Below are positions 8,037-28,072 of a stretch of 64,000 bases of DNA, in pieces (positions within the stretch are counted from its first letter, which is position 1; the number at the start of each line of letters is the position of its first letter). The translations under genes were made by a program, and so were the position numbers. Source of the stretch: a virus. The stretch spans positions 100,447 through 164,446 of IMG/VR virus record IMGVR_UViG_3300031772_000002. The stretch is one strand, 5' to 3'. A model generated the notes under the pieces. It made no database searches, was not told the origin of the DNA, and was given only the letters and a program-made list of their open reading frames with translations.

Positions 8037-9365
8037 ATGAATACGTATGTATATCGTGAAATTTTAGATAAGTCAATTGTCGGTGAAAAAATTTATCTTG
8101 GAACAATAGATTATATTTTAGGTTTATATACCGATAAATTAATTGTTCCTCACAATCCATTTGGTGACGATCCTCATGGGACAGGATCAATTGATGGATC
8201 AACATTTAAAATTGGACAAGTTGAAGCTATAGAATTAGTTAAATCTGAAGAAATTATTGCTAAAAAGAAATTCAGATTATTAGGAGATTCATTAAGTGAA
8301 ACAGTAATATTAACAGGAACTTCAACATTAAATGATGCTGGACAATTGGAATTATATAATAAAGTTAATTTAGAAAATAAATTAGTTATAAAATTAACTG
8401 CTCATGATAATGTTGCTCAATATAGTTATATTAATAAAAAACTAGTTATTGGTAGTGGTTATGAAAAAGCATCTAAATACATTTTTGAAATAGACTCTCC
8501 AAATTTATCGTATATTGATAACTGTTCAGGAGATAGTTTAAATTATGTTGATGCATTTATACAAAATATTTCTTTTTTAGATGGTTTAGGAGATACAAGA
8601 AGATTAATAGATATAACAGATACCGTTGATAATTTAACAGATTTATTTTTTGACCATCCAATAATGACTAAACATATGGCTGCTGAATTAATGAATATTG
8701 GAAGTTCTCATGTATCATCTTCAGCGTGGGGTTATCTTAATTCAATAAATCAATCTCTTGGAAAAACAAGTAATGTTGAATTTAATAATGTTACAATAGT
8801 AAATGATTTAATTGTTAATGGAAGTTTATCATTAGATAGTATATCAATAGCTAATGAATGTTTATCTGGATATTATAAAGAAAATCAATATAGTGTTTAC
8901 ATGGGATATCCAGAAGATGTTAAATTAAAATTTACAATTAAATTATGGAAAAGTTTAATATCTTCCAGAACATTGGTATACACCACAGATTATTCATTAT
9001 ATTGTAGAGCTGAATATAGTGGTATTAGAACAACTTTATTTGGACATTTAGATATAATACTTAAAGCTGGAGATACTCCTACTTTAAAAGTAACAATGGA
9101 AGTTACAGATCCTGGAAATGATAAAAGATTATGTCCTGATGGAAACGTTGCTGGAGAAATTGGATGTGGAACTGTATTTTTTGAAGGTTCAGGAAATAAA
9201 TATACAGGAATAGCATTATTAGCTTATAATACTGAAACTATTGAGTTTTATGCAAATGGTATAAATTCTCTTCCAGCATGGCCAAATACAAATATAAAAT
9301 TATATTTTAATGTAAGTTATTTTAATAATATTGAATTTTCAGCTCCGGCCCCAGGAGAGTCTTAA
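8037..9365 (+). CDS. Hypothetical tail-fibre-like protein
   Basis: 442-aa ORF; INQSLGKTSNVEFNNVT resembles a phage fibre repeat. Confidence 0.5.
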   Translation: MNTYVYREILDKSIVGEKIYLGTIDYILGLYTDKLIVPHNPFGDDPHGTGSIDGSTFKIGQVEAIELVKSEEIIAKKKFRLLGDSLSETVILTGTSTLNDAGQLELYNKVNLENKLVIKLTAHDNVAQYSYINKKLVIGSGYEKASKYIFEIDSPNLSYIDNCSGDSLNYVDAFIQNISFLDGLGDTRRLIDITDTVDNLTDLFFDHPIMTKHMAAELMNIGSSHVSSSAWGYLNSINQSLGKTSNVEFNNVTIVNDLIVNGSLSLDSISIANECLSGYYKENQYSVYMGYPEDVKLKFTIKLWKSLISSRTLVYTTDYSLYCRAEYSGIRTTLFGHLDIILKAGDTPTLKVTMEVTDPGNDKRLCPDGNVAGEIGCGTVFFEGSGNKYTGIALLAYNTETIEFYANGINSLPAWPNTNIKLYFNVSYFNNIEFSAPAPGES

Positions 9366-9391
9366 TTAAAAATTTAACCTAAAGGTGTTTT

Positions 9392-9940
9392 ATGATTAGT
9401 CCTCAAGTAATAAATATGAATAGAGATAGCGTTATGGCTTTCATTGGATATGATGTTATTAATAATACTACACAAATTCCTATTAGTGAAGAGTCTGTAA
9501 TATCTTTATTTGTTGATATAAGATTGTATAACTTAATAACTGGTTCAAATGATGTTATAGAAAAAATTACTATGTCGTTTCAAGATGTGGGCTTTTGGAC
9601 TATTAATATTAACGATATTATTAGCATATTAAGTGATCGTAATAAATATGTTGGAAAAATTTCTAAAAATTCTGATGAAACCGTAGATCTAAGAACATTT
9701 TATATTCCAGAATTTGCCGTTGATAATGATTCGTTTGAAAATGTCCTTATGAGAATGCCTTATGAAATAATTATTGCAGAAGGAAGTGCATATTTTTATT
9801 GGTATGATATTGGACATCAAGGGGAGCCATCATATATAAGATATGTAGCTTCTGCATATGAAGGAGGATCAGGAACTAATTATGCTACGGATCCAAGTAG
9901 AGTAACTCACCGTGGTGAAATAACTGAATACTTAGTTTAA
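9392..9940 (+). CDS. Hypothetical structural protein
   Basis: AAGGTG RBS, operon context. Confidence 0.6.
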   Translation: MISPQVINMNRDSVMAFIGYDVINNTTQIPISEESVISLFVDIRLYNLITGSNDVIEKITMSFQDVGFWTININDIISILSDRNKYVGKISKNSDETVDLRTFYIPEFAVDNDSFENVLMRMPYEIIIAEGSAYFYWYDIGHQGEPSYIRYVASAYEGGSGTNYATDPSRVTHRGEITEYLV

Positions 9941-9961
9941 CTATAAGGATTGTGTTAAGCA

Positions 9962-10897
9962 ATGCATCCATTTACTTCAAGTCTTTTTGCGAATCCTAAT
10001 CTTAATTCTGCATTTTCAAGTTATGGATCCAAACCATATATTTCAAAAATTGTATTTTCTGTAGGAACTAAAGCTTTATCAGACGATCAATATGTTATTA
10101 AAAATAAAGATGGATCAATGCCATCCGCTTCAATTAATAATGGATTATTAACATTTTCTACACAACAATATCATCCTTATGTTGGAATTGGAGATGAGGT
10201 GTCTTTAAGTAATGACATAACAGTATATTTAAATGAAAAAATATCTTTATATCAATGGAGAGTACTTGATGCGTATGGAAATCTTCCTCTTAGTTTTACA
10301 AATGCTACTGTTGTAAAAATAGATAAAACATTTAATAGTTTATATGATGCAATATCAGGAAATACTCCTGAAATATATTCAAAACTTGGAAACAATTTCG
10401 ATCTTATATCAAAAAGAGCTCAGTTATGTATAGCATGTTATAAAATGACTGAGGATATGGCGGGAAATAGCATTACATTTAGTGAAAGTTGGATTCTTGA
10501 TGAAGAATGTAATATTAAAATATTTTCTCCTATAGATATAAGTCATGAATGCAATTCAATACAAAGAAGTAAAATAAGAGGATCATCAACAGATGGATTT
10601 GTATTATATTCATCAGATGGATCAGGCTCTGTTCCTACAATACATATGTCCCCTTATATTTCAGTAAGCGGATTAATAATAGGAGATGACGATGGTATTG
10701 TTGGAAATATGGCTAGATATGGCTTTTTATATGATTCAATTTATACAGAGGCAGAACTTACTATGGAAATATTTGATAATGTTATAGTAAACGTATACAA
10801 TGCAATAGATTTAAGAACACAACCTATAAATAGCAATATCTATAATAATATTATAAAAAGATGCGTTTTTGGAATAGTTGTTGAAAACCTTACTTAA
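9962..10897 (+). CDS. N-terminal part of the beta-helix repeat adhesin (first repeat unit)
   Basis: FSVG...LTFS...VGIGD...YLNEKIS..QWRVLD.YG unit homologous to the repeats in 10904..17320. Confidence 0.75.
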   Translation: MHPFTSSLFANPNLNSAFSSYGSKPYISKIVFSVGTKALSDDQYVIKNKDGSMPSASINNGLLTFSTQQYHPYVGIGDEVSLSNDITVYLNEKISLYQWRVLDAYGNLPLSFTNATVVKIDKTFNSLYDAISGNTPEIYSKLGNNFDLISKRAQLCIACYKMTEDMAGNSITFSESWILDEECNIKIFSPIDISHECNSIQRSKIRGSSTDGFVLYSSDGSGSVPTIHMSPYISVSGLIIGDDDGIVGNMARYGFLYDSIYTEAELTMEIFDNVIVNVYNAIDLRTQPINSNIYNNIIKRCVFGIVVENLT

Positions 10898-10903
10898 AAA
10901 ATT

Positions 10904-13900
10904 ATGAATAACATTTTTAATAATCTAATAATTAACTGCTCAACTGTCGGAATTTATTACGGAAGTCCGATTGGTTTTGAGTATGATAATAATATTATTC
11001 AGGATTGTGGGTCAGGATGTGTAAATAGTAGTAGTTCAGAAACTAATTGTTTTCATAATTGTATTACTGATGATGCAACGATTCCTGGTGGAATAAATTG
11101 TCATCAAAATACAGAATTAATTTTTGAAGATAAAGTTAATGAAGATTATCGTTTGCATATAAGTGATATAGTTGCATATAGAAATAATGCAGGTATTGAC
11201 AAATCAGAATTATATAATTATGATATAAATGGAGATATCATTGATAACTCATGGTGCATAGGTCCATTTCATAAAACTCCTGAAATTACATTTAGTGTTG
11301 GAGACGATGTTAGTACAGATTTAAAAACAGGAAGTCCTACATATTCAATTACTAATTCAATTTTAACATTTAGTGTGCCACAAACTAATGAATTTTTATG
11401 TGCTGGATGCATTATAAACAGAGTTGGTCCTGATCCATATGTTTTACTTAAAAGAAAGATTGACAATAGTAATTGGGAAGTTGTCAATTCAGATGGAACA
11501 ATAGTTGCAAATAATTCAGGTCCTGTTACTATTAATACAATAAACTTTTTTACTAATGATGTAAATAATTTAGTATATAATGTTGCACATTCAGATCATA
11601 TCACTCAATATTTAGATTCAGACAATTTAACTTCCATGGATATTAAAATTAAAATAGCTTGTGCGAATGGAAGTTCTCCTGATGGATTTTATATAAGAGA
11701 TTTTACATGTGATAGATATAGAAATATTGAAATATTTGTTCCTGATATGTCTGATGATGATTATATTGAATCAAATTCAAATAGAAAGCATAATGGTGTT
11801 TGGGATTTACTTGATCATGTTCCAGATAAAGACAATTATCCAAATCAAACAGTTGGAGGAAATGTTAATTATACACCATATGTAGTATATGGAGGAGAAT
11901 TTGATGAGTCTAATTGTATTAATATAGCAGTTGATTGGTGTGTAATTAATGGATTACAAATAAGCGGTGGACAGTATGGAATATATGTTATAAATTCAAA
12001 TAATCCAGTTATTAAAAATAATATTATTAAAGATTGTATTGTTGATGCTGTTCATTTTGTCGATAAATGTTTAGATGGAATAGATTATTACGAATCCATA
12101 ATTACTAAAAATTTAATTTATAATTGTGGAGAAAATGGAATTAGATTAAATTATGGAAGATTTATTTCATATGATATAACAGCAGATTTTATTACTTTTT
12201 CTATTAACAATATAGAAAATTTTGATATTGACATTCATGAATTATTTAATAAATATACAGTTGAACTTAAACAATCAAGTTATGACACTATAATATGGTC
12301 TCCAGGAAAATTAACAATTAATTTTCAAGATGGAAATACAATGAGTGATGTATTATTATCTGATAAAATTTATGGAGAACCATGGGGAGTTATAACTGCA
12401 GGATCTGGAGTTTTAAGTGAACTAGAAACAACTAAAATGGATGAAGCTGATTCTTATGTAACAAATACTTCTGGAGATTTTAGAAAAAATCAAATTAAAA
12501 TTTATCATAACACAATTATTAAATGCAATCATGGAATTTATATAGAAACAGTTGACGATAGCAATACTAATGTTATAGCTTTGCTAAAAAATAATTTAAT
12601 AACTCAATGTATTAAAGAATGTTACTACACTTCTTTTGTAAATCCATCTTCAGTTTTAATAAATCATTGCGCGTCCGACGATTCATCTCTTGATAATTTT
12701 GTCGGAATGAATAATATTAACGATATAAATATTCAATTTGTAAATATATCAAATCATGATTATCGATTAACTTTAAATGATACTATTGATATGTATGGAT
12801 ACCATACATTATCAGACGAATGTTATCAAGTTGAATATGATAATGTATTTACTGAATATGAATCTATAAACAATTTAGTATTTGGATCAAATACATGGAA
12901 ATCAAGAAATAAAGAAATAAATTTTTCAATTGGAGCTAATACTGAAAATCTTGATGAAAATCCTGATGATAGAAAATTAACTATTACTAATGGAATTCTT
13001 ACTTTTACCGGAGATGGGATTAGTGATAATATAGGAATTGGAGATAAGATAACTTACGAAAACGGAGGAACAAAATATTGTTACCTAGCTGAACGAGGAA
13101 ATAATTATAATTGGCATGTTTTAGATGTTGATGGAAATGAAATATCCGATACATTAGAATCTGAAGTAACAAGTATTAAAAGAGTGTTTAACTCGTTAGC
13201 CTTTGCAATTTCAGATAGTGGTATAATAGTAGAATTTCCATATATAAGTGATAAAGATATTAATTCTAAAGAATTAAATCTATATGGTTGGTGTTATAAT
13301 GATAACGATACAGTAGATACTGGGGATATTATTATAAATGGATGGCTAACCCATCCTTTGTATAAATTTTATATTCAATCACCCGATAATATCAAAACCC
13401 AGTGCTCTACAATTCAATCTCATTCAGGAGTATGGGGAGGATATCGAATATCCTCATCTGATGCTGGAGGGTCTCCCAAGTGTCTTACAATTGATAACAA
13501 CTTCATTGTCATTAAAAGATTATCTTTAGAACGATACGATAATACCGGAGACGTTATTAATGCAGTTGGGAATGGTATTATTTTAGAAAATAATATTATT
13601 AGAAACGGAGATCGTGGAATTCTTTTAAATGGAAGTGATGTTGATAATTTAAATATTGCTTTTGGAAATATAGTGTATGATTCCGAATCTGTTGGCATTG
13701 ATTTAATATATACAAAATCTATTAATAATACAATAGTTAACTGTGGTATTGGAGTAAGATTAAATGATGTTGCCTGCAAAGCTATAAATAATATATCACA
13801 TGAAGATGACGGGGTTTGTTATAGCGGAAAACTTGATGGTGTAGAATCATGCTTAAGTAATGATGATACTGCAGGAACTTCTAATAATAATATGTCCAAT

Positions 13901-16900
13901 GTAACTATTGAGTTTAATGATAAAAATTTAAAAGATTTTCATATTAAAAGAAAAGATTGGTACGCAATAAACAATGGAGTTAATTTTGGATCTCTATGTT
14001 CACTTATTGTAAAAGATGGATACTTATATGAACAACCATTTTATTATAATATTGATGGTGAATTAATTAGTGATAATACGTGGTGCAGAGGGGCCGATAC
14101 AATTGAAGACATAGAAACTATTAATTTATATTTTTCTGCAAATAACGATACTTCTAATTTTATAACATTGGATCATGGAACAAATGGATATGTATCAATA
14201 GATCAAAGCATAGCAACATTTTCAACATCACAAATTGATGATCGTATTGGAGTTGGAGATAAATTAATATATACTGACGATGACGGTGAGCATATTTGCT
14301 ATTTATATGAAAAAATTTCAGATTTACAATGGATAGTAAAAGATTTATTTGGATTAGAAGTTACAAATTCCAGTAATGCAAATCTTAATAGTATAACAAG
14401 AGCATTTGTATCATCATGGTCAAATTTATTTTTAGCGTCATCAAATGAAAGTGTGCAGCAATTACTTGGAACAAGTGATAATCCTTTTATTTATTTAACA
14501 AAAGCAATGTATTGTATAAATATAGCTTTATATAAATATGACATAATTAATAGTTCAATTGTAATTTCTGGATTTATAACTGATATTAATCATTATATAA
14601 AATTATTTACTCCAGTTGATTTAAGAAAGCATTGTAATGCAAGTCAATCCCATCGAGGGTCAATAAAATACGAAAATCCTGCCAGAATACATTCAGAAGA
14701 TTCTAATGGAATATCCATTGAATGCAATTATACTATTATTGATGGAATAATTTGTTCAGCTATAGGATATGATGCGATATCTTTAATAGGTGTAACCGGA
14801 TGTGTTATTATAAATAATATATTATTCAATAGTAATAATGGCATAACATCTGATGAAAGTTGTATTCAAAATATTATTATTAATAACACTATATATAATA
14901 TTGTTTTTGATGGAATTAAAAGTGGAGTAAATGATATTATATTTAATAACACAGTAGATTCATGTGGATCTAAATGTTTTAATAATTATCCAAGAGATTT
15001 ATTAATTAATAATATAGGACAAAGGGCGGGAGATGTATGTTTTAATTATGGATATACTGAAAATTGTATAGCTTCAGATTTATCTTTAGTTAATTTTAAC
15101 AATAACATAAATGAACTTGAAGTATTATTTATTGGACGATATGGAGAAAGTGATCCTAATGAAGAAGATTATCATTTAACTCAAGATAATTATTTAGTAA
15201 AATGTGCCGGAAAAAGACTTGATGGCAATTCTTATTATAAATTTAATATAGATGGATCTTATAATTCAAGATCAACATGGTGGGACATAGGATCTCTTGA
15301 ATTTCAATCTAAACGTATTGTTTATTCGATTGGAATATCAACAGAAGATTTACAAACTAAATATTTAGGAAATAATACCCATTACACTATTACAGTAAAA
15401 AATGAAATAAGTTTTATAGAGTTTTCTAATCCACAAATAAATATTCATTTAGGTATAGGAGATAGAGTTTTTGACGATCATGGAACTTTTGAAAATGGAT
15501 GTTTCCTGATAGAAAAAATAACTGAATCAAAATGGATAGTGTATGATATTTTTGGAAATTCATTATCAGAATCATCAGGGATAATTGAAAAAATCAATAG
15601 AGTCTTTCCAACAATACGTGATGCATGTAATAATGAAACTGGATTTCCTTCAAACGAATTTTTAAATTCGTTAAGTTTATATGATTTGAATGTTAACGTT
15701 ACTCTCGCATGTTACAATGATGAAGGTGATTTCTTTTCATACCCTGGTGCATATATATACGATATAATTACTGAAGCGCACAATAACCTTAGAATAATTG
15801 TTCCTAATAATATAATAACTCAATGTAATAAAACACAAAGACATGATGGGGTATACGGGTATGGCAACAAAGGATTTAAAACTGAATTAACTATAATTGA
15901 TGGATCGTCAGATTCTGTTATACAAGCGTTCGGAATTAAATATTTAGAAATTGAAGGTTTACAAATAAAAGGACTTCATCAACTTTCTCATGGAATACAT
16001 ATTACTCAATGTAAACCATTTTATATTGGATACAATATAATACAAGGAATTTATGGAAATGGAATATTATGCCAAGATAGCGATAAAAAAAATATTATCG
16101 TCAACAATTTAATATATGATTGTAATGATGATGGAATAGGAATAGAATTTCTTAATACAGGTAATGGCTTAGACATTGATATTAATAACAATACAATAGT
16201 TAATTGCAGGCGAGGAGTTTACTTAAATAAAATAAATGATCCTTATATTACCGGATTGTCAGTTCGTCTAAAAAATAACTTATGTCAAGATTCAGAATAT
16301 AAAGATTATGTCGCTGAATATGAAAATCATTTTGGACATTTCTCTCTTAGTAAATGCATAAGCGGAGATGAAACAGCTTCAAATTTTGCCGGAACAATGA
16401 ATATAAGAAATAGATTTATTAATTTTATTGATCGAGATGGAAAAAATTTTAATCTTAATAATTTACTTGATGGTATAGCTGTTAATAATGCTCTGGATTT
16501 AAGCGGCGATAATGTTTTTCCATTCACAGACGATATTACCGGAACTATTAGAGATGTTGGAGAATATGATATAGGCGCGTTTGAAGTGGTTTTAATTTTT
16601 GGTTATGGAGAACTAATAGTAGGTCCAACTATTATTAGTGGAATAGGAATCATTGGAGAAGGATTTCCTGTTATTGATTTATACTTAAGAGGATTAGATG
16701 AATTTGATGAACCAGATTATATACCTTATATTGATCCAAAATATCAATTTATAAACATTGAAGGGTCAGACCCTGTATACGATTTAAATGCTTTTATTGA
16801 TAGGCTTGAATCGATTTATAGTTTAGTTATTCATGCCCAAGGCGGTGAAAAATTTCCAGGAATGTTTTCGTTTAATGTAAGGCCGGAAAATACTATTGTT

Positions 16901-17320
16901 GTTAAAACATATGAACCAGAATTAATACCACACGGACCAGCATCATTTGTTTATATTAATAATATAATTGATGATGAAAGTTCTCATTCTTTATTAACAT
17001 TTAAAAATTTAAAAATATACAGCAATGATAGTGGTGATACTTATAGTTTATTTAGTCCGTTTTGTCCAGTCACAGGAATTAGATTTGAAAACTGTATAAT
17101 TCAGGTAAATAATGATTGTATATCTCAGGCGCCTCATTCAACAATACAATCAATAAATAGTATTTTAATATTTAGAAATGATTCACAAGAAAATATATTT
17201 TGTTTAGTAAAAGATGGACCTGTAATACCAGTCGATGTTGAAAATTTAATAGCAAATTCAATTATATTAACAGGTTGTACTGATTTCGATGTAACGTTTG
17301 TAATAAACAAACTATCTTAA
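10904..17320 (+). CDS. Giant right-handed parallel beta-helix (pectin-lyase-like) repeat protein; tail spike/adhesin
   Basis: Four large repeated units (FSVG/FSIG/FSAN/YSIG...GIGD...W.V.D..G) each followed by NNxI/NCxxG beta-helix and DY.L...DIG motifs. Confidence 0.8.
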   Translation: MNNIFNNLIINCSTVGIYYGSPIGFEYDNNIIQDCGSGCVNSSSSETNCFHNCITDDATIPGGINCHQNTELIFEDKVNEDYRLHISDIVAYRNNAGIDKSELYNYDINGDIIDNSWCIGPFHKTPEITFSVGDDVSTDLKTGSPTYSITNSILTFSVPQTNEFLCAGCIINRVGPDPYVLLKRKIDNSNWEVVNSDGTIVANNSGPVTINTINFFTNDVNNLVYNVAHSDHITQYLDSDNLTSMDIKIKIACANGSSPDGFYIRDFTCDRYRNIEIFVPDMSDDDYIESNSNRKHNGVWDLLDHVPDKDNYPNQTVGGNVNYTPYVVYGGEFDESNCINIAVDWCVINGLQISGGQYGIYVINSNNPVIKNNIIKDCIVDAVHFVDKCLDGIDYYESIITKNLIYNCGENGIRLNYGRFISYDITADFITFSINNIENFDIDIHELFNKYTVELKQSSYDTIIWSPGKLTINFQDGNTMSDVLLSDKIYGEPWGVITAGSGVLSELETTKMDEADSYVTNTSGDFRKNQIKIYHNTIIKCNHGIYIETVDDSNTNVIALLKNNLITQCIKECYYTSFVNPSSVLINHCASDDSSLDNFVGMNNINDINIQFVNISNHDYRLTLNDTIDMYGYHTLSDECYQVEYDNVFTEYESINNLVFGSNTWKSRNKEINFSIGANTENLDENPDDRKLTITNGILTFTGDGISDNIGIGDKITYENGGTKYCYLAERGNNYNWHVLDVDGNEISDTLESEVTSIKRVFNSLAFAISDSGIIVEFPYISDKDINSKELNLYGWCYNDNDTVDTGDIIINGWLTHPLYKFYIQSPDNIKTQCSTIQSHSGVWGGYRISSSDAGGSPKCLTIDNNFIVIKRLSLERYDNTGDVINAVGNGIILENNIIRNGDRGILLNGSDVDNLNIAFGNIVYDSESVGIDLIYTKSINNTIVNCGIGVRLNDVACKAINNISHEDDGVCYSGKLDGVESCLSNDDTAGTSNNNMSNVTIEFNDKNLKDFHIKRKDWYAINNGVNFGSLCSLIVKDGYLYEQPFYYNIDGELISDNTWCRGADTIEDIETINLYFSANNDTSNFITLDHGTNGYVSIDQSIATFSTSQIDDRIGVGDKLIYTDDDGEHICYLYEKISDLQWIVKDLFGLEVTNSSNANLNSITRAFVSSWSNLFLASSNESVQQLLGTSDNPFIYLTKAMYCINIALYKYDIINSSIVISGFITDINHYIKLFTPVDLRKHCNASQSHRGSIKYENPARIHSEDSNGISIECNYTIIDGIICSAIGYDAISLIGVTGCVIINNILFNSNNGITSDESCIQNIIINNTIYNIVFDGIKSGVNDIIFNNTVDSCGSKCFNNYPRDLLINNIGQRAGDVCFNYGYTENCIASDLSLVNFNNNINELEVLFIGRYGESDPNEEDYHLTQDNYLVKCAGKRLDGNSYYKFNIDGSYNSRSTWWDIGSLEFQSKRIVYSIGISTEDLQTKYLGNNTHYTITVKNEISFIEFSNPQINIHLGIGDRVFDDHGTFENGCFLIEKITESKWIVYDIFGNSLSESSGIIEKINRVFPTIRDACNNETGFPSNEFLNSLSLYDLNVNVTLACYNDEGDFFSYPGAYIYDIITEAHNNLRIIVPNNIITQCNKTQRHDGVYGYGNKGFKTELTIIDGSSDSVIQAFGIKYLEIEGLQIKGLHQLSHGIHITQCKPFYIGYNIIQGIYGNGILCQDSDKKNIIVNNLIYDCNDDGIGIEFLNTGNGLDIDINNNTIVNCRRGVYLNKINDPYITGLSVRLKNNLCQDSEYKDYVAEYENHFGHFSLSKCISGDETASNFAGTMNIRNRFINFIDRDGKNFNLNNLLDGIAVNNALDLSGDNVFPFTDDITGTIRDVGEYDIGAFEVVLIFGYGELIVGPTIISGIGIIGEGFPVIDLYLRGLDEFDEPDYIPYIDPKYQFINIEGSDPVYDLNAFIDRLESIYSLVIHAQGGEKFPGMFSFNVRPENTIVVKTYEPELIPHGPASFVYINNIIDDESSHSLLTFKNLKIYSNDSGDTYSLFSPFCPVTGIRFENCIIQVNNDCISQAPHSTIQSINSILIFRNDSQENIFCLVKDGPVIPVDVENLIANSIILTGCTDFDVTFVINKLS

Positions 17321-17336
17321 AATTAGGATACTTTAA

Positions 17337-20300
17337 ATGACTGCACGATGGGATTTATTAAATTCTGTTCCATACGCTTCAGATATATCAAATTTTTATT
17401 TTACATGTTATTGTGAATTTGAAGGTGAAATTTATTTTGGATCATATTTTTGGAATAATAATTTTGCTACTGGAGATTATGGAACATTATATAAATTTAA
17501 TATTGGTACAGAAATTATATCTGCAGTTTGTACTTTACCAATTGTAGAATTAAGTCCAGGAGATGGGGTTGGTCAATATTTAATAACATCATTAGTGGTT
17601 TTTAATAACAGATTATATTTAATGTCTGGAAGTGCAATTTATGGTAACGATCCTCAAGAATCAAAAATTCTTGGCACAAGATTATATATACTAAATTCAA
17701 CTAAAGATGGAATAACAGAAGTTACAGATACTCCTCATGAAGTAGGAGAAAGAAAATTAATAGTTTTTGATGGAAATCTTTATTCAATTGATGTTTGGAG
17801 AAATTTGCCTGGAATGATTCCAGCCCCAGGAAGATTATATAAACTTGATGGATTTATATGGAATGTTGTAGCAACTTGGCCAGATTCTATTTGCTGGCCT
17901 GAAGATATAATTGTATTTGAAGATGAATTATATGTAATTGATAGCGCTAATTTATATAAATGGAATGGAGTTGATGCTTTTATTTTTGTAGCAAACGCAC
18001 CGTCATTTACTCCATTTGACGACTCAACTATATCTTATTTTAATATCTTACATTATCCTAGAACAACTTTATCAATTAATAATTCAAGATTGTATGCCGG
18101 AGGAAATATACAAGATGAAGAAAATCCATTATATTTTTGGGGATCAATTGTAAAATTAAATCTTGCTAAAGATTCTTTTGATATTGTTGGAATATATCCA
18201 CTAACAAGTTCTTATAAAGAAGGATTTATATCAAGTGTTTTATATAGAAATGAATTATTATTAGCAGGAACAGGGCAAGTAGGAACATATCCAGTTCCTG
18301 GTATTATTTATAAAGTTAATAATTTAGAAACTGGAATAGATTTTTCTTGTGATTTTAATAAATATAAATATGGAAATGTATTTGATCCTAATGATGAATG
18401 TAGAGATTGTTTTCCATTTATAAGAATAAACAAACTTGAATTTTTATATAAAATAATATCTTCTCCAAGTGATGCAATTAAAAATATTCAATGTCTTAAT
18501 AATACTATTTACATTGTTAATTTATATTCAGGACTAATGGCATATAGTTTTACTGAAGGTGCTGTAACTCCATTTACATTATTATACAATTCAACTAAAC
18601 CAACCTATACTATAACTTATGATGGTAATGGCAATACTGGAGGAACTGTTCCAGTTGATTCAACCATTTATAAAGAAAAAGATATAGAAACTGTAACTGT
18701 TTTAGGAAATACAGGAAGTCTTGTTAAAGTTGGATATACTTTTATAGGTTGGAACACAGCAGCGAATGGAAGTGGTACAAGTTATACTGGAGGAACTTTT
18801 TTTATAATTAGTTCAGCAAGTATAATACTTTATGCTCAATGGACTCTCAATGCTACATATACTATAACTTACAACGGAAATCTTAATACAGGTGGATCTA
18901 TACCAGTAGATTCAAATAATTATATATCAGGGGCCACGGCAACTGTTTTAGATAATGTTAATGATTTAATCAGAACCGGTAGAAGTTTTGTTGGATGGAA
19001 TACTGCGGCAAATGGAAGTGGAACAAATTATGCTCCCAGATCAACGTTTACTATTTCAGCAAATTTATTACTTTACGCTAAATGGACATCCAGTACAACT
19101 TATACAGTAACCTATGTAGCTTATGTTCCAACCGGACCTATTACAGGATCAGTACCAGTTGACAAAGTAAAATACACTTCTGGATCTACTGTAACGGTAA
19201 TGAAAAATGTTGGAAATTTAGTTATATCAAATTCATCAATATTTATTGGATGGAGTAAAACTCCCACAGCATCTACTATTTATGCACCTGGAACAACTTT
19301 TGCTATAAGTTCCTCTAATGTTACACTTTATTCCCGTTTTATTACTAATGAAAATTGGAATTCCTGGAGTGATGGAACTTATGTTTATGTAGCTGCTGGT
19401 TATCAAGGGTTGTATGCATTTGATGCCATTACAGGTGTAATGGTTGGATACGTAAATGCTGGTTATCCTAAAATTTATACAGTTTTTCATACTAATAGAT
19501 GCACAGGAGTATGGAGTGATGGTGTAAATGTATTTACAGCAGATACTATATCAGGTGGATTTTCTGGAATAAGAGCTTGGTCAATAAATCCTCTTAACCC
19601 ACCTTCTACATTTTTCAGTGTAGCTGGAAGTATCAATATATTAACAGGAGGCGGTGCAAATAATATAAGACCTTATGGATCTTATATTATCGCTTGTTGC
19701 TATACCGGATTATATGCTTATTCGTACAGTGCTGGAGTCTTTACTCCATTAGGAAGTATTGATCCTGGTGGAGAATCTTTAGATATATTTATATCACATC
19801 CTTATATTTTTGTTGCTAACGGTGCTGATGGAACAAGAGTGTATACTTTTAATGGAACTACTTTTATTCAAGTTGGATATCAGGCAAATGAAATTGGAGG
19901 CAATGCTTATAAAATATATTCAGATGGAACTAATGTTTTTGTTGCTGAAGGAAATTCTTTAAGAGTATTTGAATTGGATTTTGTAGGCCCCAACTTAATC
20001 ACTCCTATTGAAAGAATTTCAAATCCAGTAACTTATTATTCAGTAGCAGGTGATGGAAATTGTATTTTTACAGGCAATGGAACTTTTTATATACCAGATC
20101 TATTAACTTATAAATTTATACCTGAAGAAAGAGTAATATTTCCTAATGTTGAATCAGATCCTGAAAATGCAATGGTTGGAAGTCCAACATTTTCAATTTT
20201 ATATAATCATCCATATTATTCTATTTTAACATTTAGTATACCTCAACCAATTTTAGAACCAAATTCATTAGTATTTGTACCTGAAGGAATTAATCCTGAA

Positions 20301-21389
20301 ATTTATGAAGATGGTATTATATTACTTATGAAAATAGATGATTCAAATTGGTATGTTAAGACTGAAAATATTACTTTTTTACCAACTGATATTGGGCCTG
20401 TTGAAATATATTCAATATGGCAATTTCCTACAAATCCTAAAAATAGAGCAGTAATTTCTGAATTATTTTTATCTTTAGGTATTGATTATATAGAAAATTA
20501 TTCTGGAAGAATTTTTAATGTTTATGGTACAGAATTTAGTACTATAGATTTAACTGCAACATATTTAGATTCTGATACTATTTTACATTCCTGTTCAATT
20601 GAAACAGGATATTCAAATGTTCTAGCAACAATAACAATTCCTCCTGAAGCTTCATTTGGAATTGGAACTTTAACATTAACAAATAGATTTAGTTCAAGTG
20701 ATAACATTGAATTAACACTTTCCCCACTTATTATTGATTTCGTATTTTTATATTATGATAGAATTTATGACATTTATGGATCTAAATTTGGAACTTCAGG
20801 ATTAGTAGCAACTTATTTAGATTCAAATTCAATTTTACATTCATGTCAAATAACTCCAGATTATTATGATTCTTATGCTCAAATAACTATTCCTCCTGAA
20901 GCATATATTGGAATTGGAACTTTAACATTAACAAATTCAGAAAACTCAAGCGATAGTGAACCATTAGAACTTCCTAAATTTTTACATATAGAATCTGCAG
21001 ATGTTGTTTCCGGTAGAACTTATGATATTGAAGGTGAATGGTTTGGAACTCACGATCTGGTAGCACTATTTACAGATTCAAACAATGATGAATATCCATG
21101 TAGTATAAAGTCTGGATATATTGAAACTTATGCACAAATTACCATTCCATTAGAAGCTAAACATGGAGTTGGTTCTCTTAAATTAATAAACTCAGATTTA
21201 AGTGAAGATTCAATAGAAATTGAAATTATACCAATAATTTCTGGTAAAACTGTTTATAATACATTAACATATAATTATGGAACTGGTAATTTAAATTTTC
21301 ATGAAACAGAAATTACTCAAGTTAATTGTAAAGAAAATACTAATCCAGAATTTAAAGATGAATCAATTGGAAGAAATCTTTTAGAATAG
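17337..21389 (+). CDS. Multidomain surface/virion protein: beta-propeller, three Listeria-Bacteroides (InlB B-type) repeats, LVIVD-like repeats, three IPT/TIG-like repeats
   Basis: TYTITYDGNGNTGG.VP...F.GWNT.ANGSGT.Y repeats; YG..FG...L.A.Y.DS...ITIPPEA..GIGTLTLTN x3. Confidence 0.8.
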   Translation: MTARWDLLNSVPYASDISNFYFTCYCEFEGEIYFGSYFWNNNFATGDYGTLYKFNIGTEIISAVCTLPIVELSPGDGVGQYLITSLVVFNNRLYLMSGSAIYGNDPQESKILGTRLYILNSTKDGITEVTDTPHEVGERKLIVFDGNLYSIDVWRNLPGMIPAPGRLYKLDGFIWNVVATWPDSICWPEDIIVFEDELYVIDSANLYKWNGVDAFIFVANAPSFTPFDDSTISYFNILHYPRTTLSINNSRLYAGGNIQDEENPLYFWGSIVKLNLAKDSFDIVGIYPLTSSYKEGFISSVLYRNELLLAGTGQVGTYPVPGIIYKVNNLETGIDFSCDFNKYKYGNVFDPNDECRDCFPFIRINKLEFLYKIISSPSDAIKNIQCLNNTIYIVNLYSGLMAYSFTEGAVTPFTLLYNSTKPTYTITYDGNGNTGGTVPVDSTIYKEKDIETVTVLGNTGSLVKVGYTFIGWNTAANGSGTSYTGGTFFIISSASIILYAQWTLNATYTITYNGNLNTGGSIPVDSNNYISGATATVLDNVNDLIRTGRSFVGWNTAANGSGTNYAPRSTFTISANLLLYAKWTSSTTYTVTYVAYVPTGPITGSVPVDKVKYTSGSTVTVMKNVGNLVISNSSIFIGWSKTPTASTIYAPGTTFAISSSNVTLYSRFITNENWNSWSDGTYVYVAAGYQGLYAFDAITGVMVGYVNAGYPKIYTVFHTNRCTGVWSDGVNVFTADTISGGFSGIRAWSINPLNPPSTFFSVAGSINILTGGGANNIRPYGSYIIACCYTGLYAYSYSAGVFTPLGSIDPGGESLDIFISHPYIFVANGADGTRVYTFNGTTFIQVGYQANEIGGNAYKIYSDGTNVFVAEGNSLRVFELDFVGPNLITPIERISNPVTYYSVAGDGNCIFTGNGTFYIPDLLTYKFIPEERVIFPNVESDPENAMVGSPTFSILYNHPYYSILTFSIPQPILEPNSLVFVPEGINPEIYEDGIILLMKIDDSNWYVKTENITFLPTDIGPVEIYSIWQFPTNPKNRAVISELFLSLGIDYIENYSGRIFNVYGTEFSTIDLTATYLDSDTILHSCSIETGYSNVLATITIPPEASFGIGTLTLTNRFSSSDNIELTLSPLIIDFVFLYYDRIYDIYGSKFGTSGLVATYLDSNSILHSCQITPDYYDSYAQITIPPEAYIGIGTLTLTNSENSSDSEPLELPKFLHIESADVVSGRTYDIEGEWFGTHDLVALFTDSNNDEYPCSIKSGYIETYAQITIPLEAKHGVGSLKLINSDLSEDSIEIEIIPIISGKTVYNTLTYNYGTGNLNFHETEITQVNCKENTNPEFKDESIGRNLLE

Positions 21390-21400
21390 TAAACTAAATT

Positions 21401-21838
21401 ATGGCAAAATTAACAAAATTATATACAACAAAAGATCATCTTACTTTAGGTGTATGGGATGGTGCTGCTGAGTCATGCATGTGGTGTAATAATGATTTTT
21501 TAGTAATAGGTTGTGGTTGGAATATTGCTACTGAAAATTATGATTTAGGTATATCAGTTTTTGCTATAAATTCAAATGGCTCATTAACTCTTAAATATCA
21601 AGACACTTCTTTACTTAAGGTAACAGCTTTATGCCATGATGGAAGATTTCTTTATGTAGGTATTATAGATCCAAATTATTCTACATTCAATGAAGTTAAA
21701 ATTTATAAATTAGAAGTAGATGGCTCATTAACTCTTAAAGATACTATTTTAATAACTGATGGTTATGTTACAGGAATTAAAAGCGATGGAAGGTTTATTT
21801 ATATAAGTACTACTTATGGAACTCCATGGGAAACTTAA
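21401..21838 (+). CDS. Beta-propeller fragment 1
   Basis: DGRFLYV / GSLTLK blade repeats. Confidence 0.7.
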   Translation: MAKLTKLYTTKDHLTLGVWDGAAESCMWCNNDFLVIGCGWNIATENYDLGISVFAINSNGSLTLKYQDTSLLKVTALCHDGRFLYVGIIDPNYSTFNEVKIYKLEVDGSLTLKDTILITDGYVTGIKSDGRFIYISTTYGTPWET

Positions 21839-21850
21839 TATAGGATTTTT

Positions 21851-22303
21851 ATGTCATTATTTTCATATGAAGTAGACGTCAATGGTACTCCAACTTATAA
21901 AGATAGTTTTACAATTGGAGGGAATGAGATAGGAACACAAAGTAATATAGCTTGTGATGAAAATTTTGTATATTTCATAGACGATCCTGATTTTTATCAT
22001 AATGAAGGAACTCTTCGCGTTTTATCTGTAGATGAAAATGGATTGCCGACTCAAGTATATGAATTGTCAAGTATGTGGAATATTTGTTATAAAGTTTTTC
22101 GATTGGGAGATTTTCTTTATACATCTAACTATCTACAACATCCTACTTATAGAGAAGGTAGATTGTATAGATATAGTATATCAGTAGAAGGAGTATTAAC
22201 ATTACTTGACTATGTTGAAACTGGATTCGTTGTTAACGATATGTCTATTGATGATGAAGGTGTAATTTATACAGCTCTTGATGGCGCTGCATCTTTTACT
22301 TAA
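21851..22303 (+). CDS. Beta-propeller fragment 2
   Basis: Continues the same blade repeat (Y.V..DG..T..D). Confidence 0.7.
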   Translation: MSLFSYEVDVNGTPTYKDSFTIGGNEIGTQSNIACDENFVYFIDDPDFYHNEGTLRVLSVDENGLPTQVYELSSMWNICYKVFRLGDFLYTSNYLQHPTYREGRLYRYSISVEGVLTLLDYVETGFVVNDMSIDDEGVIYTALDGAASFT

Positions 22304-22319
22304 TTATTGGTAATAAATT

Positions 22320-23174
22320 ATGTCAGCTGGAATGAACTCTTTTCATATAGTTGATGGTGTACTAACACTTCTTGATGAATATACAGAAGCCACTTCTCAA
22401 TGGGGAACTTCTATTTGCGGGAATTCTAATTATGTATTTTTATCAGAATACGGTTATCCAGCTTATGACCCTGCTTATTATACTCAAGGATTGATTACTT
22501 ATGGAGAATATAATATTTCATGCCTATGTTTTAATGAAGTTACTATGGAAAAATCATTTCTTCCTAAACTAACTTCACCATTAGTAAATAATGGAGATAA
22601 TAGTTTTGTTGAAAATATTGATTTGGATATAGTTGGTAATCCACGTATATTTATGGGAGAAACTGTAGATATAGGTCCTTATGAAGTTCCATTACATATT
22701 TTTACATTAACTTCAGATAAATTACAATCAGTACATCAAAATATTTTAACTTTAGATGAAACTAATGAATTATTTATTTCACAAAATCCTATTATTATTT
22801 ATAAAGATTTATGGAATCAATTCGACAATTTAACAGATAGAAAAGAATTTATTCGTGGAGCTAAAATAATATTAAAATTCAAAATTATAGATCCTCCTAT
22901 AAAATTATTTAATGATAAAGAAGATATTTATTTAACTGAATTTGAAGCATATTTAGATGCAAAGAATTTATCTATTATATTTACTAAAACACAACAAAAT
23001 TTAGGTTATTTTCTTAGTACAATATTTGATGACGGTCGTTATATTTTTAAGTTTGATGAATCAATACATAAATTGTATGTTTATATAAATTATACATATA
23101 ACAAAGGTAAGTCAGGAAAAAACAATATTGTAAATGAAGTAAGAATTGGTGGATCTTCAATTATTAATTGGTGA
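22320..23174 (+). CDS. Last propeller blade, choice-of-anchor-Q-like motif and C-terminal domain
   Basis: SPLVNNG...DIVGNPR...VDIGPYE. Confidence 0.7.
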   Translation: MSAGMNSFHIVDGVLTLLDEYTEATSQWGTSICGNSNYVFLSEYGYPAYDPAYYTQGLITYGEYNISCLCFNEVTMEKSFLPKLTSPLVNNGDNSFVENIDLDIVGNPRIFMGETVDIGPYEVPLHIFTLTSDKLQSVHQNILTLDETNELFISQNPIIIYKDLWNQFDNLTDRKEFIRGAKIILKFKIIDPPIKLFNDKEDIYLTEFEAYLDAKNLSIIFTKTQQNLGYFLSTIFDDGRYIFKFDESIHKLYVYINYTYNKGKSGKNNIVNEVRIGGSSIINW

Positions 23175-23178
23175 AAAA

Positions 23179-26100
23179 ATGAAAAGATTTATTAATCCAA
23201 AGCGTCAAACTATACATAATAAAGCAATTACTGACTTTACTAAAAATACTCATGTAATTACTTCTGGATTTGTCAAAGGATACTCATCAAATAAATTTTC
23301 ATGGATTGCCGATTATTTGTTCAAACATAAAGGCAATGTTTCTATAAAACCTCATACCTGTTATACGGGATTTTTTAGTGAACGTGATATCTTACAAAAC
23401 GAATATGGAAATGTATTTGATTTATATAATCGATATCCTTTTTTAAGTGATTATAATTATTCCATTTTTCCTAAAAATTATTTTGAATTATCTACAAAAC
23501 AATATTTTAAAATAGGTCAAAAACTATCAGAATATGATACTATTGAATTTATAAATTTTTCAAATATAGATGATCCAATTCCTGATGATTTAATTGTTGA
23601 CTATTTACCAACTTATAACATATCGCATAACTATTACAGAGTTCCGGCTTTTTATGCTCAAGGATATAAATTAGATCTCGATCAAGCTATTGAAGGAAAT
23701 GATTTTAAAGATTGGACTTACTATTATCGTTATGTATTTACAAATAAATCTTTTATAACTAATTACACCGTAAACGTTAATAATTTCATTATTACATTAC
23801 TTGAATCTGAAGAAGATATTTATAAAATTTATAATGGTATGATTAATGAAACAATGCAAGCAATATTTGAAGATCAAGATCCTGAAAGAATATTTAACTA
23901 TAATGGATCACTTGATTCTGAATTTTTTTATTTTAACGAATCTTTAATGCATTGGTCAATTAACAATAATAATATAATGGCTGGAACGGAAAAATATTAT
24001 CCATATTTTGGATTTGTACAAAAGTTTAATGAAAATATGGAATATATAATTGATCCTTATGAATCACCATCTTTAGATTTATTCTTTCCAGAAGTTTGTA
24101 AAAATGGAGCCATTGAACCTTCTAAAATTATAATAAATTGGAATAACGAACAAAAAGGATCTCTGGCATATAATCCATGCATACATATGGGATTATTTAA
24201 TGATCAATCTCGTATGGTATATAATGTATGTAAACATATGTTAAGAAGGATTGGCCCAGAAGATCCTGTAACATTAAAATCATTATTTGAACTTAAAAAG
24301 AATGGAGAATATACAACCGATATAATACTTTATGGCATTGACACTGAAACTGAAAGAAATAGAAGAAATTCTGCAGTTGTTACTACCGAACCTTATATGA
24401 TAGCAAAGCCAATAGCAGATGGGCAATTTGTAAATATATCATTTATAAATTATAACGGAACTCCTATTTGTAGAACTGAGGATATGGAATTTTTAAGAGA
24501 TCCAGCTATTTACTTAAAAATAAAAGCATCTTCATCATTTTTTAAAGATTTAAATTATTATTTATCTCTCAATGATTATAATACAGATATTATAAATACT
24601 ATTTTTATAAAAAATCCACGAGCACATAGTTCAAATTTTAACTCTGCAGATGAACATCATTCTTATGAAGACTTCGGATCTGATCCTTATTCACTCCTTA
24701 TGCGTCAAGAATATTGTCTTGATGATTTTGTTTATGGATATATAGGAACAGAATCTGAAGATAATGATAAAGGAATACATATTGAATTTTGGATTGATCC
24801 CGTTGGAAATCAAATATATAATTATAGCAATTCTAAAATAAAAGTAAATGGAGCAGGATTCTATTGCAATACAATTATTGATGGTGATAAAAAAATATTG
24901 CCTGAACATAACGAATATCTTGTTTTGTATTGTTCCAATTATTCTCCAACAAGTTCTCCTCATAAAAATGATAATACTCAAACTCCTATTCCAAATACAT
25001 TAATTAAATTATTTACAGATTCTGAAACATCAATAATTTCAAAAATTTCTGAAAATGAAAAATTTAAACCAATGATTAAACTTCCTGGAATCAACGGTTA
25101 TATTAAAATATTAGAACAAAATAATCATTTTAAAATATCAAGAGCGTCGGACGGGGACTATGAAATAATTTATAATGTAGAATTTCCATTTTGTCCAGGA
25201 TCGTATATTGAACGCCTTACTATGCGTTTCAATGATGATCATCCATATATACCATTACAAGTATTATATAAAGCAAATTATATTAATGCAGGATCATGCA
25301 AATCAACGGTAGAAGAGGGAAGCACATACGATTCAACAAATGAACGATATGCTCCAATTGCTGATGATTGTTTTGTTCCTCATCAAATTTTTAGAAACCA
25401 TCAATTTTCAATATACGGAAAAGATATTGATTTGGATAGTAATATAATAAGCAATTCTTATTTCCCAGATTTAAGCGATATTGAAACATTCATACATCAT
25501 GACGAAGATGCTTCTTATGTATTTCCATATGGAAAGCCCGAACCATCATATACAAATGATTCTATTGTATATATCAACGAAAAGGTATTATATCCCGAAC
25601 ATGCTATATTAAAATCTATTGATGAAGAATTAATGACAATAGTAAAACCTGATTATGAAAATTATAAACATCATGGAATGTATACATTAATTCTTTCTGA
25701 GAATGGAAATAATGAAAAATTTACTCTTCCATTCTTTTCAAGTGATATAAAAATATTATTACAAGTAAGTAATGCTGTATGGAAATTTAATAATAATTAT
25801 ATTTCTTATATTGGAAATGAATATCCAGCTAATATTTTTAAAATTAATGTTTCAACTATTTTTAAAGATTTCACTACATACCAAAAGGACCATGGAGCAA
25901 TCCCTGATGCCAAAAGGTGGCTATATTCCTATTTCAAAGGATTTGCTTACATGGCCTCTATTGTTGATAACCCTCAATCAAATCAAAATTATACCAATAT
26001 TAATAATGAAAATTTATTAGCAACATATGATTCAAATTCAAATATAGTTATTGAAATATGGGATTCAAAATCAAATATAGGCAATGATAAAAAAGGAAAT

Positions 26101-27142: not shown

Positions 27143-28072
27143 ATGAAAGTATTTGTAATCGATCACGAAGGAAGTCCATGCCTTCCAACCAAGCCTCGAA
27201 GAGCAAGGCAGTTACTTGATCAGGGAAAGGCGAGAGTTAAGCAGGTAGTACCATTTGTTATTCAACTCACTCGAAAGATTGATAATCCTATTGGATCTTT
27301 TGAAATGGGTGTAGACGATGGATCTAAACATGTGGGAATTGCCATCAAGAATACAAAAACTGATGAAATTGTTTTCAGAGCACAACTTGACCATAGGCAA
27401 GATGTAAGTAGAAAAATTGAACAAAAGAAGAATTATCGCAAGGCTCGAAGATTCAGACTGAGGTGCAGAAAACCAAGATTTGATAATCGGACGGCAAAAG
27501 ACAAGTTGGCACCAAGTATAAGGCAGAAGAAAGAAACTGTTATTCGAGTTATTAAGGATATGCGTAAAAGATTGAATATTGTTAAGATTACTGTTGAAGA
27601 AATTTTTTTTAATCATGCTAAACATAATTATGGAAAGTTCTTTTCTTTGGTAGAAATAGGTAAAAAATATTTAAGAAAACAAATTGAGTCCATGGGTTTA
27701 GTTTATGAATACACTAAAGGTTTTATCACTAAAGAATCCCGTATTGTTTTGGGATTAAGCAAAAAACACAGCAATGATGCATGTGCTATTTTAAAAAGTA
27801 ATAAAATAAATTGTATAGAGTATTTTATTAAACCCAGAAGAACTAAGATTTGGGAATTAAATCCTACTAAAATTTGTATGGAAAAGAATGGATTCAGACA
27901 TTACGATCTTGTTAAAACTATCCACATAACAAGAGGTGTTGTTATAGGATCTGTAAGAAGTTTGAAAGCAAAATGTCTTACAGTAAGAACCAGATTTAAT
28001 GATAATTTTTCTGTTTCTTATAACAAGAGCAGTGTATTACAAAGGTTTTGTGGATTAATTTATACTTATTAG
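27143..28072 (+). CDS. isrB: IsrB (HNH-less IscB homologue; RRXRR domain RNA-guided nickase)
   Basis: PCLPT (PLMP-like), RuvC-I GVDDGSK, Arg-rich bridge helix RKARRFRLRCRKPRFDNR, RuvC-II VEE, RuvC-III HSNDA; no HNH; 309 aa. Confidence 0.85.
   Translation: MKVFVIDHEGSPCLPTKPRRARQLLDQGKARVKQVVPFVIQLTRKIDNPIGSFEMGVDDGSKHVGIAIKNTKTDEIVFRAQLDHRQDVSRKIEQKKNYRKARRFRLRCRKPRFDNRTAKDKLAPSIRQKKETVIRVIKDMRKRLNIVKITVEEIFFNHAKHNYGKFFSLVEIGKKYLRKQIESMGLVYEYTKGFITKESRIVLGLSKKHSNDACAILKSNKINCIEYFIKPRRTKIWELNPTKICMEKNGFRHYDLVKTIHITRGVVIGSVRSLKAKCLTVRTRFNDNFSVSYNKSSVLQRFCGLIYTY

Follow-up and report, generated by a model that had tools for sequence, protein, structure and literature searches.

We analysed a run of adjacent fibre genes in a 64,000-nucleotide stretch of viral DNA (hereafter the window; IMG/VR record IMGVR_UViG_3300031772_000002), several of which break off inside a structural repeat that the next gene continues. 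The window corresponds to bases 100447-164446 of a viral genome that is complete at 164,446 bp, with direct terminal repeats and a G+C content of 28%, and its source runs are labelled sediment metagenome. The split genes sit within a long same-strand late operon. They encode the two parts of a giant beta-helix fibre, P0001 and P0002; P0004; two small propeller pieces, referred to as A and B; and P0003. An initial annotation, made from the sequence letters alone, had described this run as a giant adhesin split at short stop-to-start junctions, and all of its open reading frame (ORF) coordinates and junction sequences were confirmed in the sequence (Table 1).

Table 1. Genes and junctions of the split fibre module (positions are those of the window)
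Feature	Position	Strand	Description
P0001, 311 aa	9962..10897	+	N-terminal domain and first beta-helix rungs of repeat unit 1; ends ACT TAA
Junction 1 (P0001/P0002)	10895..10906	+	ACT TAA at 10892-10897, spacer AAA ATT (6 nt), ATG at 10904; in frame
P0002, 2138 aa	10904..17320	+	Rest of unit 1, units 2-5 and C-terminal domain
P0002/P0004 boundary		+	TCT TAA to 17320, 16 nt, ATG at 17337; different frame
P0004, 1350 aa	17337..21389	+	Second large fibre protein; propeller-like, Listeria-Bacteroides and Ig-like repeats (Pfam Flg_new); ends TAG TAA
P0004/A boundary		+	Double stop TAG TAA to 21389, A starts at 21401; P0004 frame differs from both neighbours
Propeller piece A, 145 aa	21401..21838	+	Blade repeats; ends ACT TAA
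A/B junction		+	ACT TAA to 21838, 12 nt, ATG at 21851; in frame
Propeller piece B, 150 aa	21851..22303	+	Paralogue of A; AGGA 5 nt before ATG; ends ACT TAA
B/P0003 junction		+	ACT TAA to 22303, 16 nt, ATG at 22320; P0003 in +1 frame
P0003, 284 aa	22320..23174	+	Residues 1-71, last propeller part; residues 72-284, conserved C-terminal domain

Alignment of the repeat units resolved P0001 plus P0002 into five units, in each of which an N-domain leads into a right-handed beta-helix, with a C-terminal domain after the last unit. Residues 1635-1783 of P0002, in unit 4, matched the Pfam families NosD (PF05048, 33.6 bits against a cut-off of 23.6) and Beta_helix (PF13229, 28.8 bits against a cut-off of 25.9), and the beta-helix of the remaining units, the cut unit 1 among them, was assigned by alignment to this Pfam-matched unit. 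The 10897 cut falls in the beta-helix of the first of the five units, in agreement with its initial description as repeat-internal, and the A/B and B/P0003 cuts likewise lie within a repeat, both at the same phase of the blade. The boundary at 17320, which had been counted as a fourth junction of this kind, is instead a native gene end, as the C-terminal domain of the fused orthologue stops about 45 residues earlier.

The comparison with fused homologues was positive for junction 1. Two larger, distant phages carry single uninterrupted ORFs here, of at least 2301 aa (L006 of G001, 186 kb) and at least 2310 aa (L007 of G002, 208 kb), both open at the end of the locus and both preceded by four syntenic genes. 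P0001 aligns to residues 12-299 of the L006 ORF and 21-310 of the L007 ORF with 41-43% identity, and P0002 residues 5-1315 follow collinearly at 310-1617 and 321-1622, respectively, with 40-41% identity. Around the cut, our G-I-V-V-E-N-L-T-stop-K-I-M-N-N faces G-I-M-L-(gap)-N-D-A-Q-T-I-G-G-A-C in L006 and G-I-I-L-(gap)-N-P-S-S-T-I-G-G-V-C in L007, each with one gap against our read-through, so that the T-I-G-G of the fused orthologues faces our T-stop-K-I-M. At the codon level, the Thr before the break is ACA or ACT in the fused genes, and our ATG faces their GGT or GGC; by this alignment the Thr at 10892 is ancestral. Unit 1 read through the stop, AAA ATT and ATG also aligned gap-free with the intact unit U5 over 14 of 14 columns. 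Because the read-through aligns with both unit U5 and the fused orthologues, the stop, spacer and start of junction 1 occupy former codons, with nothing lost. Direct joining of P0001 to P0002 would remove three positions. The initial proposal that the gene was split without residue loss, with the pieces joining directly, therefore fails at 10897, where read-through rather than the direct join matches intact units, and stands qualitatively for the propeller. Furthermore, two relatives of P0001 with 57-59% identity (P0040 and P0041, 314 aa) end two residues later, with Ser in place of Thr. Since they are cut within two residues of the end of P0001, the cut predates this divergence, and the exact position of the stop appears to have drifted.

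The window comes from a metagenome-assembled viral genome and repeat-rich genes are prone to assembly error, so that the stops might be assembly or sequencing errors, or else recent nonsense mutations in genes being lost. However, P0001 occurred letter-for-letter on 5 contigs and as 312-aa variants (92.6-96.2% identity) on 4 more, and P0002-type proteins (2138-2142 aa, 91.8-99.8% identity) on at least 6 contigs, from three source collections. Every P0001 type ends ...VVENLT and every P0002 type begins MNNIFNN; the same split is thus present in several collections, including in variants at 92-97% identity. Contigs of independent runs also cross the junctions. One contig from another run, belonging to a 96%-identical strain (64 differences over 1.8 kb), spans 10897, and others span 17320 (two runs) and 21389 together with 21838 (one run), whereas no contig bridging 22303-22320 was among the pieces listed from other runs. 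This comparison covers the best-supported differences, 361 further ones lying outside them, so that a junction with no change noted does not amount to proof. Finally, the cuts are maintained in proteins as distant as 33-59% identity, and the parts on either side remain intact and of full length. Assembly error, which the initial annotation had raised and which contigs of other runs address at three of its flagged junctions, is excluded together with recent damage for at least three junctions, and errors or gene decay as a general explanation of the stops are extremely improbable. The cuts are real, conserved and repeat-internal, and one of them has uninterrupted orthologues.

The flanks of the propeller gave an unexpected result. 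In both G001 and G002, one 300-aa protein holds counterparts of the P0004 tail and of the P0003 C-terminal domain directly next to each other, and the propeller is missing from this place. Residues 39-86 of the 300-aa protein align gap-free to the final 48 residues of P0004, ending exactly at the P0004 C terminus (E 4e-5 and E 1e-9, and found independently a further time), and residues ~88-300 of the protein (L009) correspond to the P0003 C-terminal domain with 44% identity (E 1e-68). A and B were each found in 0 of these 2 phages, an empty search being weak evidence. By these alignments, the propeller (A, B and P0003 residues 1-71) sits exactly between two halves of a protein that is single elsewhere. 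Because the propeller separates these halves, the P0004/A boundary at 21389/21401, rather than 17320, is the fourth internal junction. In G001, a protein with repeated S-T-D-x-I-N-W motifs, another propeller-like repeat type, is encoded upstream of a 173-aa gene and the 300-aa gene (L008:2947-3633). The relatives appear to carry other repeat modules where the phage of the window has P0004 and the split propeller. A joint in run X8 linking 17930 to 21416 (side 29, 80% likeness) most simply reflects a short stretch of local similarity shared by a P0004 blade and the P0008-type gene.

A, B and approximately the first 71 residues of P0003 are built from one repeat type of ~48 residues. Counted from the translation with anchors chosen by hand, the intact propeller loops have 12, 11, 9 and 12 residues, compared with 9 (A/B) and 11 (B/P0003) for the direct joins and 14 for A/B read-through. 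The loop-length argument of the initial annotation, which had given 12-13 residues for the joins, 13-14 for intact blades and 18 for read-through, holds qualitatively for the propeller. The relatives of A and B reach down to 33-48% identity and are all small proteins. Among the A-type relatives, P0013 (133 aa) and P0014 (150 aa) start MAKLTKLY, P0006-8 (213-216 aa) have an additional N-terminal part, and 5 of 5 end where A ends. The B-type relatives P0010 (154 aa), P0011 (151 aa) and P0015 (138 aa), which are 58-33% identical, share both start and end with B in 3 of 3 cases, beginning M-S/P-L/I-F/L-S-Y-E. The Met starts are thus kept in both types; in P0006-8, where an upstream blade is fused to A, the start Met is replaced (D-K-I-P-K-L-Y). 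The N terminus of P0006 is homologous to the N-terminal part of P0003 (E 1e-10) and is placed ahead of A, an arrangement that resembles the same ring in circularly permuted form.

Pfam returned no match for A, B, P0003 or the A-X-B read-through even at E <= 10, and two relatives matched Lactonase (PF10282) at 14.7 and 12.8 bits, below its cut-off of 21.7. The predicted structure of the A-X-B read-through was clearly of propeller fold (pLDDT 75, pTM 0.79), with A residues 1-19 lacking confident placement. Foldseek ranked 7-bladed lactonases as the best matches of this model (TM 0.56-0.60), and VIA-align ranked 6-bladed NHL domains (Z 22.9, rmsd 3.1, 240 residues aligned).

Within P0003, four 285-aa relatives (P0035-P0038) show hardly any change at residues 72-284, whereas residues 1-71 vary, so that a single gene contains a sharp mosaic boundary. 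For the adjacent pieces A and B, identity is only 46-74%. On a 2.6-kb contig of run X8, unlike sequence replaces window positions 21660-22087 (445 letters for 426) and 22220-22375 (165 for 154), with matching flanks. In strains that occur together, the propeller pieces appear to form a hypervariable cassette.

The propeller may have an origin other than fission. A and B may never have been one gene, but paralogous three-blade subunits arisen by tandem duplication that form rings as oligomers (an A-B heterodimer, homodimers or trimers), with the N-terminal blade of P0003 as an adaptor; the propeller would then have been amplified as whole genes instead of being split from one. Alignment of A with B indeed covers both over their full length, and they begin and end at the same phase; every close or mid-distance relative measures 133-216 aa. 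Among 1.84 billion representatives searched in full with HMMER, 15 matched, and none was a fused A-B protein. The comparison with fused homologues therefore failed for the propeller, G001 and G002 joining only its flanking parts, and only distant single-chain propellers, of which 7 of 9 tested carry Pfam Lactonase PF10282, align over the A/B junction. The best VIA-align fit of the A-X-B model, to a six-bladed propeller, would also suit two three-blade subunits, and engineered three-blade fragments are described to make dimeric and trimeric propellers (PMC6805158). However, the propeller lies exactly between the halves of an ancestral single protein and remains covalently attached, through its last part, to the C-terminal domain, pointing to an inserted domain that was once continuous. 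Moreover, identity between A and B is only 26% (E 5e-5) and the two types are conserved separately, which points to fixed heteromeric roles, and hetero-oligomers were unobtainable from fragments according to PMC6805158, so that a duplication origin would need something unusual as well. On balance, we consider such an origin unlikely, with some real chance of being right.

The setting of the junctions was next compared with ordinary gene boundaries of the same genome, using the 172 ORFs that start with ATG and have at least 60 aa, which together cover 89.5% of it. Terminators were TAA in 122, TAG in 28 and TGA in 22 of them under code 11. The phage uses the standard genetic code, and reassignment of TAA, as in an alternative-code phage, was excluded by this usage and by the coding density. 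Same-strand neighbours are separated by a median of 26 nt, with gaps of 0-30 nt in 41% of 152 pairs, many of which read TAA-NN-ATG; the spacers of 6-16 nt are mostly like these ordinary intergenic junctions. The string 'T ATG' stands before 96 of the 172 gene starts, and AAATTATG before 6. A genome-wide enrichment of CT-TAA, which the initial annotation had considered, was not found: NCT serves as final codon in 9 of 172 genes, compared with a codon frequency of 8.4%, and ACT in 3 of 172, exactly the three flagged, against ~4.2 expected from its 2.45% usage. Proteins of relatives also terminate in Y, C, D, F, L or S, and 'ACT TAA' does not appear conserved among them. As A and B share ancestry, the Thr at junction 1 is ancestral and the termini of relatives vary, the concentration of ACT at the flagged cuts is reduced to one coincidence of a few per cent. 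Shine-Dalgarno (SD)-like 4-mers precede 112 of 172 starts, compared with 12.6% of random positions, and AGGA precedes the starts at 17337 and 21851.

The initial annotation had listed ribosomal bypass, micro-intron removal and protein ligation as ways to rejoin the pieces, and each lacks a feature that it needs (a landing codon, structured RNA and intein domains, respectively). Bypassing of the T4 gene 60 type was rejected, as the spacers AAAATT, TATAGGATTTTT and TTATTGGTAATAAATT hold no ACN landing codon for ACT; a stop directly after the putative take-off codon ACT is present at all three flagged junctions. Self-splicing or micro-intron removal was rejected since the spacers have only 6-16 nt, the whole window gave 0 Rfam matches at gathering score and folding is ordinary. 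Local RNA folding at the three junctions gave z values of -0.94, -1.12 and -1.71 (overall -0.9 to -1.9) against +1.06 and -2.11 at two control junctions, and is unexceptional. A split intein or protein ligation was rejected as well: P0001, A, B and P0003 contain no Pfam family, their repeat sequence runs from about residue 2 to the end, and because the pieces align to repeat sequence up to their termini, there is no room for intein halves. The genome does have a real LAGLIDADG intein elsewhere. As for -1/+1 frameshifting, the B frame stops at 22301 and the P0003 frame has a TAA at 22314-22316, and at 21389/21401 P0004 ends in TAG TAA and the A frame has a TAA at 21395-21397. Because of these stops in both frames, simple frameshifting cannot fuse the pieces at either site.

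A broader form of recoding would combine TAA read-through at 10895 and 21836 with ribosome hopping over 22301-22319, so that fused proteins are made alongside the pieces or replace them. In favour of it, two junctions continue in frame past a single stop, the spacer of junction 1 retains the ancestral frame and length, 3 of 4 internal starts lack an SD-like motif, and all three upstream pieces terminate in ACT TAA. However, among neighbour pairs with short gaps, 22 of 62 are in frame, the third expected by chance; the stop is shifted by two codons in P0040/41, and terminal residues differ among relatives. Together with the missing landing codons, the blocked frames at 22303 and 21389, folding within the control spread, the lack of Rfam matches and the conserved Met starts, these observations make programmed recoding very unlikely.

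The explanation that we regard as probable is stable gene fission combined with coupled translation and non-covalent reassembly of the pieces. Functional fission with self-assembly was one of the alternatives offered by the initial annotation, and it is favoured by cuts that are reproducible and conserved at 33-59% identity, by conserved Met starts and by the uninterrupted orthologues of one cut. A once-continuous giant beta-helix fibre gene would have become the two ORFs P0001 and P0002. A lactonase-like beta-propeller, encoded by three ORFs (A, B and P0003 residues ~1-71), lies between the halves of the protein that relatives have as a single 300-aa chain, and the upstream half of this ancestral protein now forms the C-terminal tail of P0004. 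Each piece would stop at its own stop codon and the next would start at its own ATG 6-16 nt downstream, and this probably tight translational coupling would give near-equal amounts of the pieces. These would then reassemble without a covalent link, the beta-helix rungs stacking across junction 1 and the blades closing the ring across the propeller cuts.

Several points weigh against this explanation. Separate polypeptides and their assembly, like the separate translation and stoichiometry on which coupling depends, are what we infer from the gene arrangement. Continuity of the beta-helix across the cut is read from alignment only, and a model of unit 1 read through the stop was confident only up to the cut and poor past it (pLDDT 23-44 for residues 311-440). 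For the propeller, 'fission' is unproven because no fused A-B ancestor was found; the blade number, 6 or 7, is unsettled by the models; and contigs with P0006-8 also carry a full P0003-like protein, which is more blade material than one ring needs. At the junctions, the starts at 10904, 21401 and 22320 have no SD-like 4-mer, compared with 60 of 172 starts genome-wide, shared ancestry only partly explains that all three ACT-ending genes are the flagged ones, and low-level read-through of the in-frame TAAs at 10895 and 21836 is possible.

Stable fission with reassembly would allow a more specific proposal for the propeller, which we advance tentatively and about which doubt slightly prevails. 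It may be a natural hetero-oligomeric propeller, in which three separately translated chains, all cut at a single phase of the repeat, contribute ~2.5, 3 and 1.5 blades to one ring inserted between the halves of an older fibre protein. Such a ring would act as a non-covalent clasp that holds P0004, A, B and P0003 at the fibre tip, in a layout conserved in a phage clade and circularly permuted in some relatives, where a P0003-type blade stands before A.

The wider operon includes, upstream of the split genes, a baseplate-J-like gene, a tail-fibre gene, glycosyltransferases and an RCC1-propeller/lectin protein, and, downstream, a DUF1353/tail-assembly-chaperone-like gene and others. At G000:C1:95878-100642 of the genome, a methyltransferase, a double glycosyltransferase (GT8 and GT9) and an 848-aa RCC1-propeller and ConA-lectin protein are all encoded within this baseplate/tail-fibre operon. 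A free-standing RRXRR/HNH endonuclease gene (window 27143-28072; Pfam E 4e-43; PHROG HNH endonuclease) lies within the structural operon after a 266-nt gap. On the strand opposite to its neighbours, window positions 45836-47047 encode an IS605-family OrfB/TnpB protein (OrfB_IS605, Cas12f1-like TNB and HTH domains). A link of CTTAA/TTAC strings at the cuts to this gene was dropped, as TTAC occurs at only two of three cuts, and we know of no mechanism by which an IS605-family TnpB would leave such footprints. Minus-strand genes encode a Fibrobacter succinogenes major domain protein (window 62751-63329, E 2e-34) and a ThiF-family protein (window 35785-36522, E 4.5e-21). Outside the window (G000:C1:2332-10257), a 2641-aa ORF joins RNA polymerase beta-like (Rpb2) and beta'-like (Rpb1) domains in one frame and bears a LAGLIDADG/intein insertion at about residues 1514-1944; a 456-aa ORF without family follows it in frame after 6 nt. 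Megablast of window positions 9000-24000 against the phage collection gave zero matches, and scans of viral_contigs (queries B, P0001, P0007 and an A-type alignment) together with two scans of metagenome_contigs found no DNA of close relatives.

Among known systems, T4 gene 60 bypassing, in which a 50-nt gap is crossed from a take-off codon to a matched cognate landing codon (10.1101/2024.12.09.627546; PMC5462505), resembles the present case in being from a phage and in having a stop directly after the last sense codon of the upstream part. Here, by contrast, the gaps are 6-16 nt and no matching ACT/ACN landing codon exists. Ribosomes are known to slide and re-initiate on polycistronic mRNAs (PMC11194080), and our finding opens no new recoding mechanism. 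Phage genes are also known to become fragmented when a small indel introduces an early stop together with a new start (Rephine.r, PMC8351571). The pattern of a stop, a few nucleotides and a new ATG, collinear with an intact homologue, is the same here, as found for junction 1. The cases of that report are, however, treated as annotation noise in single genomes, whereas four junctions in one fibre module here persist over 33-59% protein identity. Runs of short ORFs in giant phage fibre genes should not be merged or discarded unchecked, those described here being conserved units. The fragmented nrdA of a T4-like phage, whose working protein is assembled from two polypeptides (PMC3045599), is likewise a phage gene in separate pieces with an evolutionarily stable split, reassembly being only proposed in our case. 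There, a mobile endonuclease gene in the split supplies interaction domains; here, gaps of 6-16 nt hold no insert and the cuts lie in structural repeats. For phage biology, a receptor-binding module made of small cassettes may ease module exchange, an idea suggested by the far faster divergence of the propeller pieces than of the near-invariant P0003 C-terminal domain.

For the fold itself, the closest family is Lactonase PF10282: 7-bladed lactonases are the best Foldseek matches, and A, B and P0003 residues 1-71 add up to 366 aa against a family model length of 344, but the family members are single chains and our pieces have no Pfam match. Propellers are described as almost always single-chain (PMC6805158). 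Donation of a blade in trans is described for Sec13 with Nup145C or Sec31 and for Seh1 with Nup85 (PMC3115789), where, as proposed for P0003 residues 1-71, strands of another polypeptide complete the ring. Those are eukaryotic coat proteins with six blades and one donated, whereas up to three chains of 1.5-3 blades each would assemble here. If true, a beta-helix cut between rungs and a three-gene propeller, each persisting across wide divergence, would be natural evidence that repeat folds tolerate repeat-internal fission and work as heteromers. Engineered propeller fragments of 2-5 blades offer a further parallel, as three-blade fragments can close as oligomers (PMC6805158); those are engineered homo-oligomers, whereas the pieces here are natural, diverged and encoded by adjacent genes. 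A hetero-oligomeric propeller at this locus would be the natural counterpart of such fragments, in the heteromeric form that proved unobtainable in vitro.

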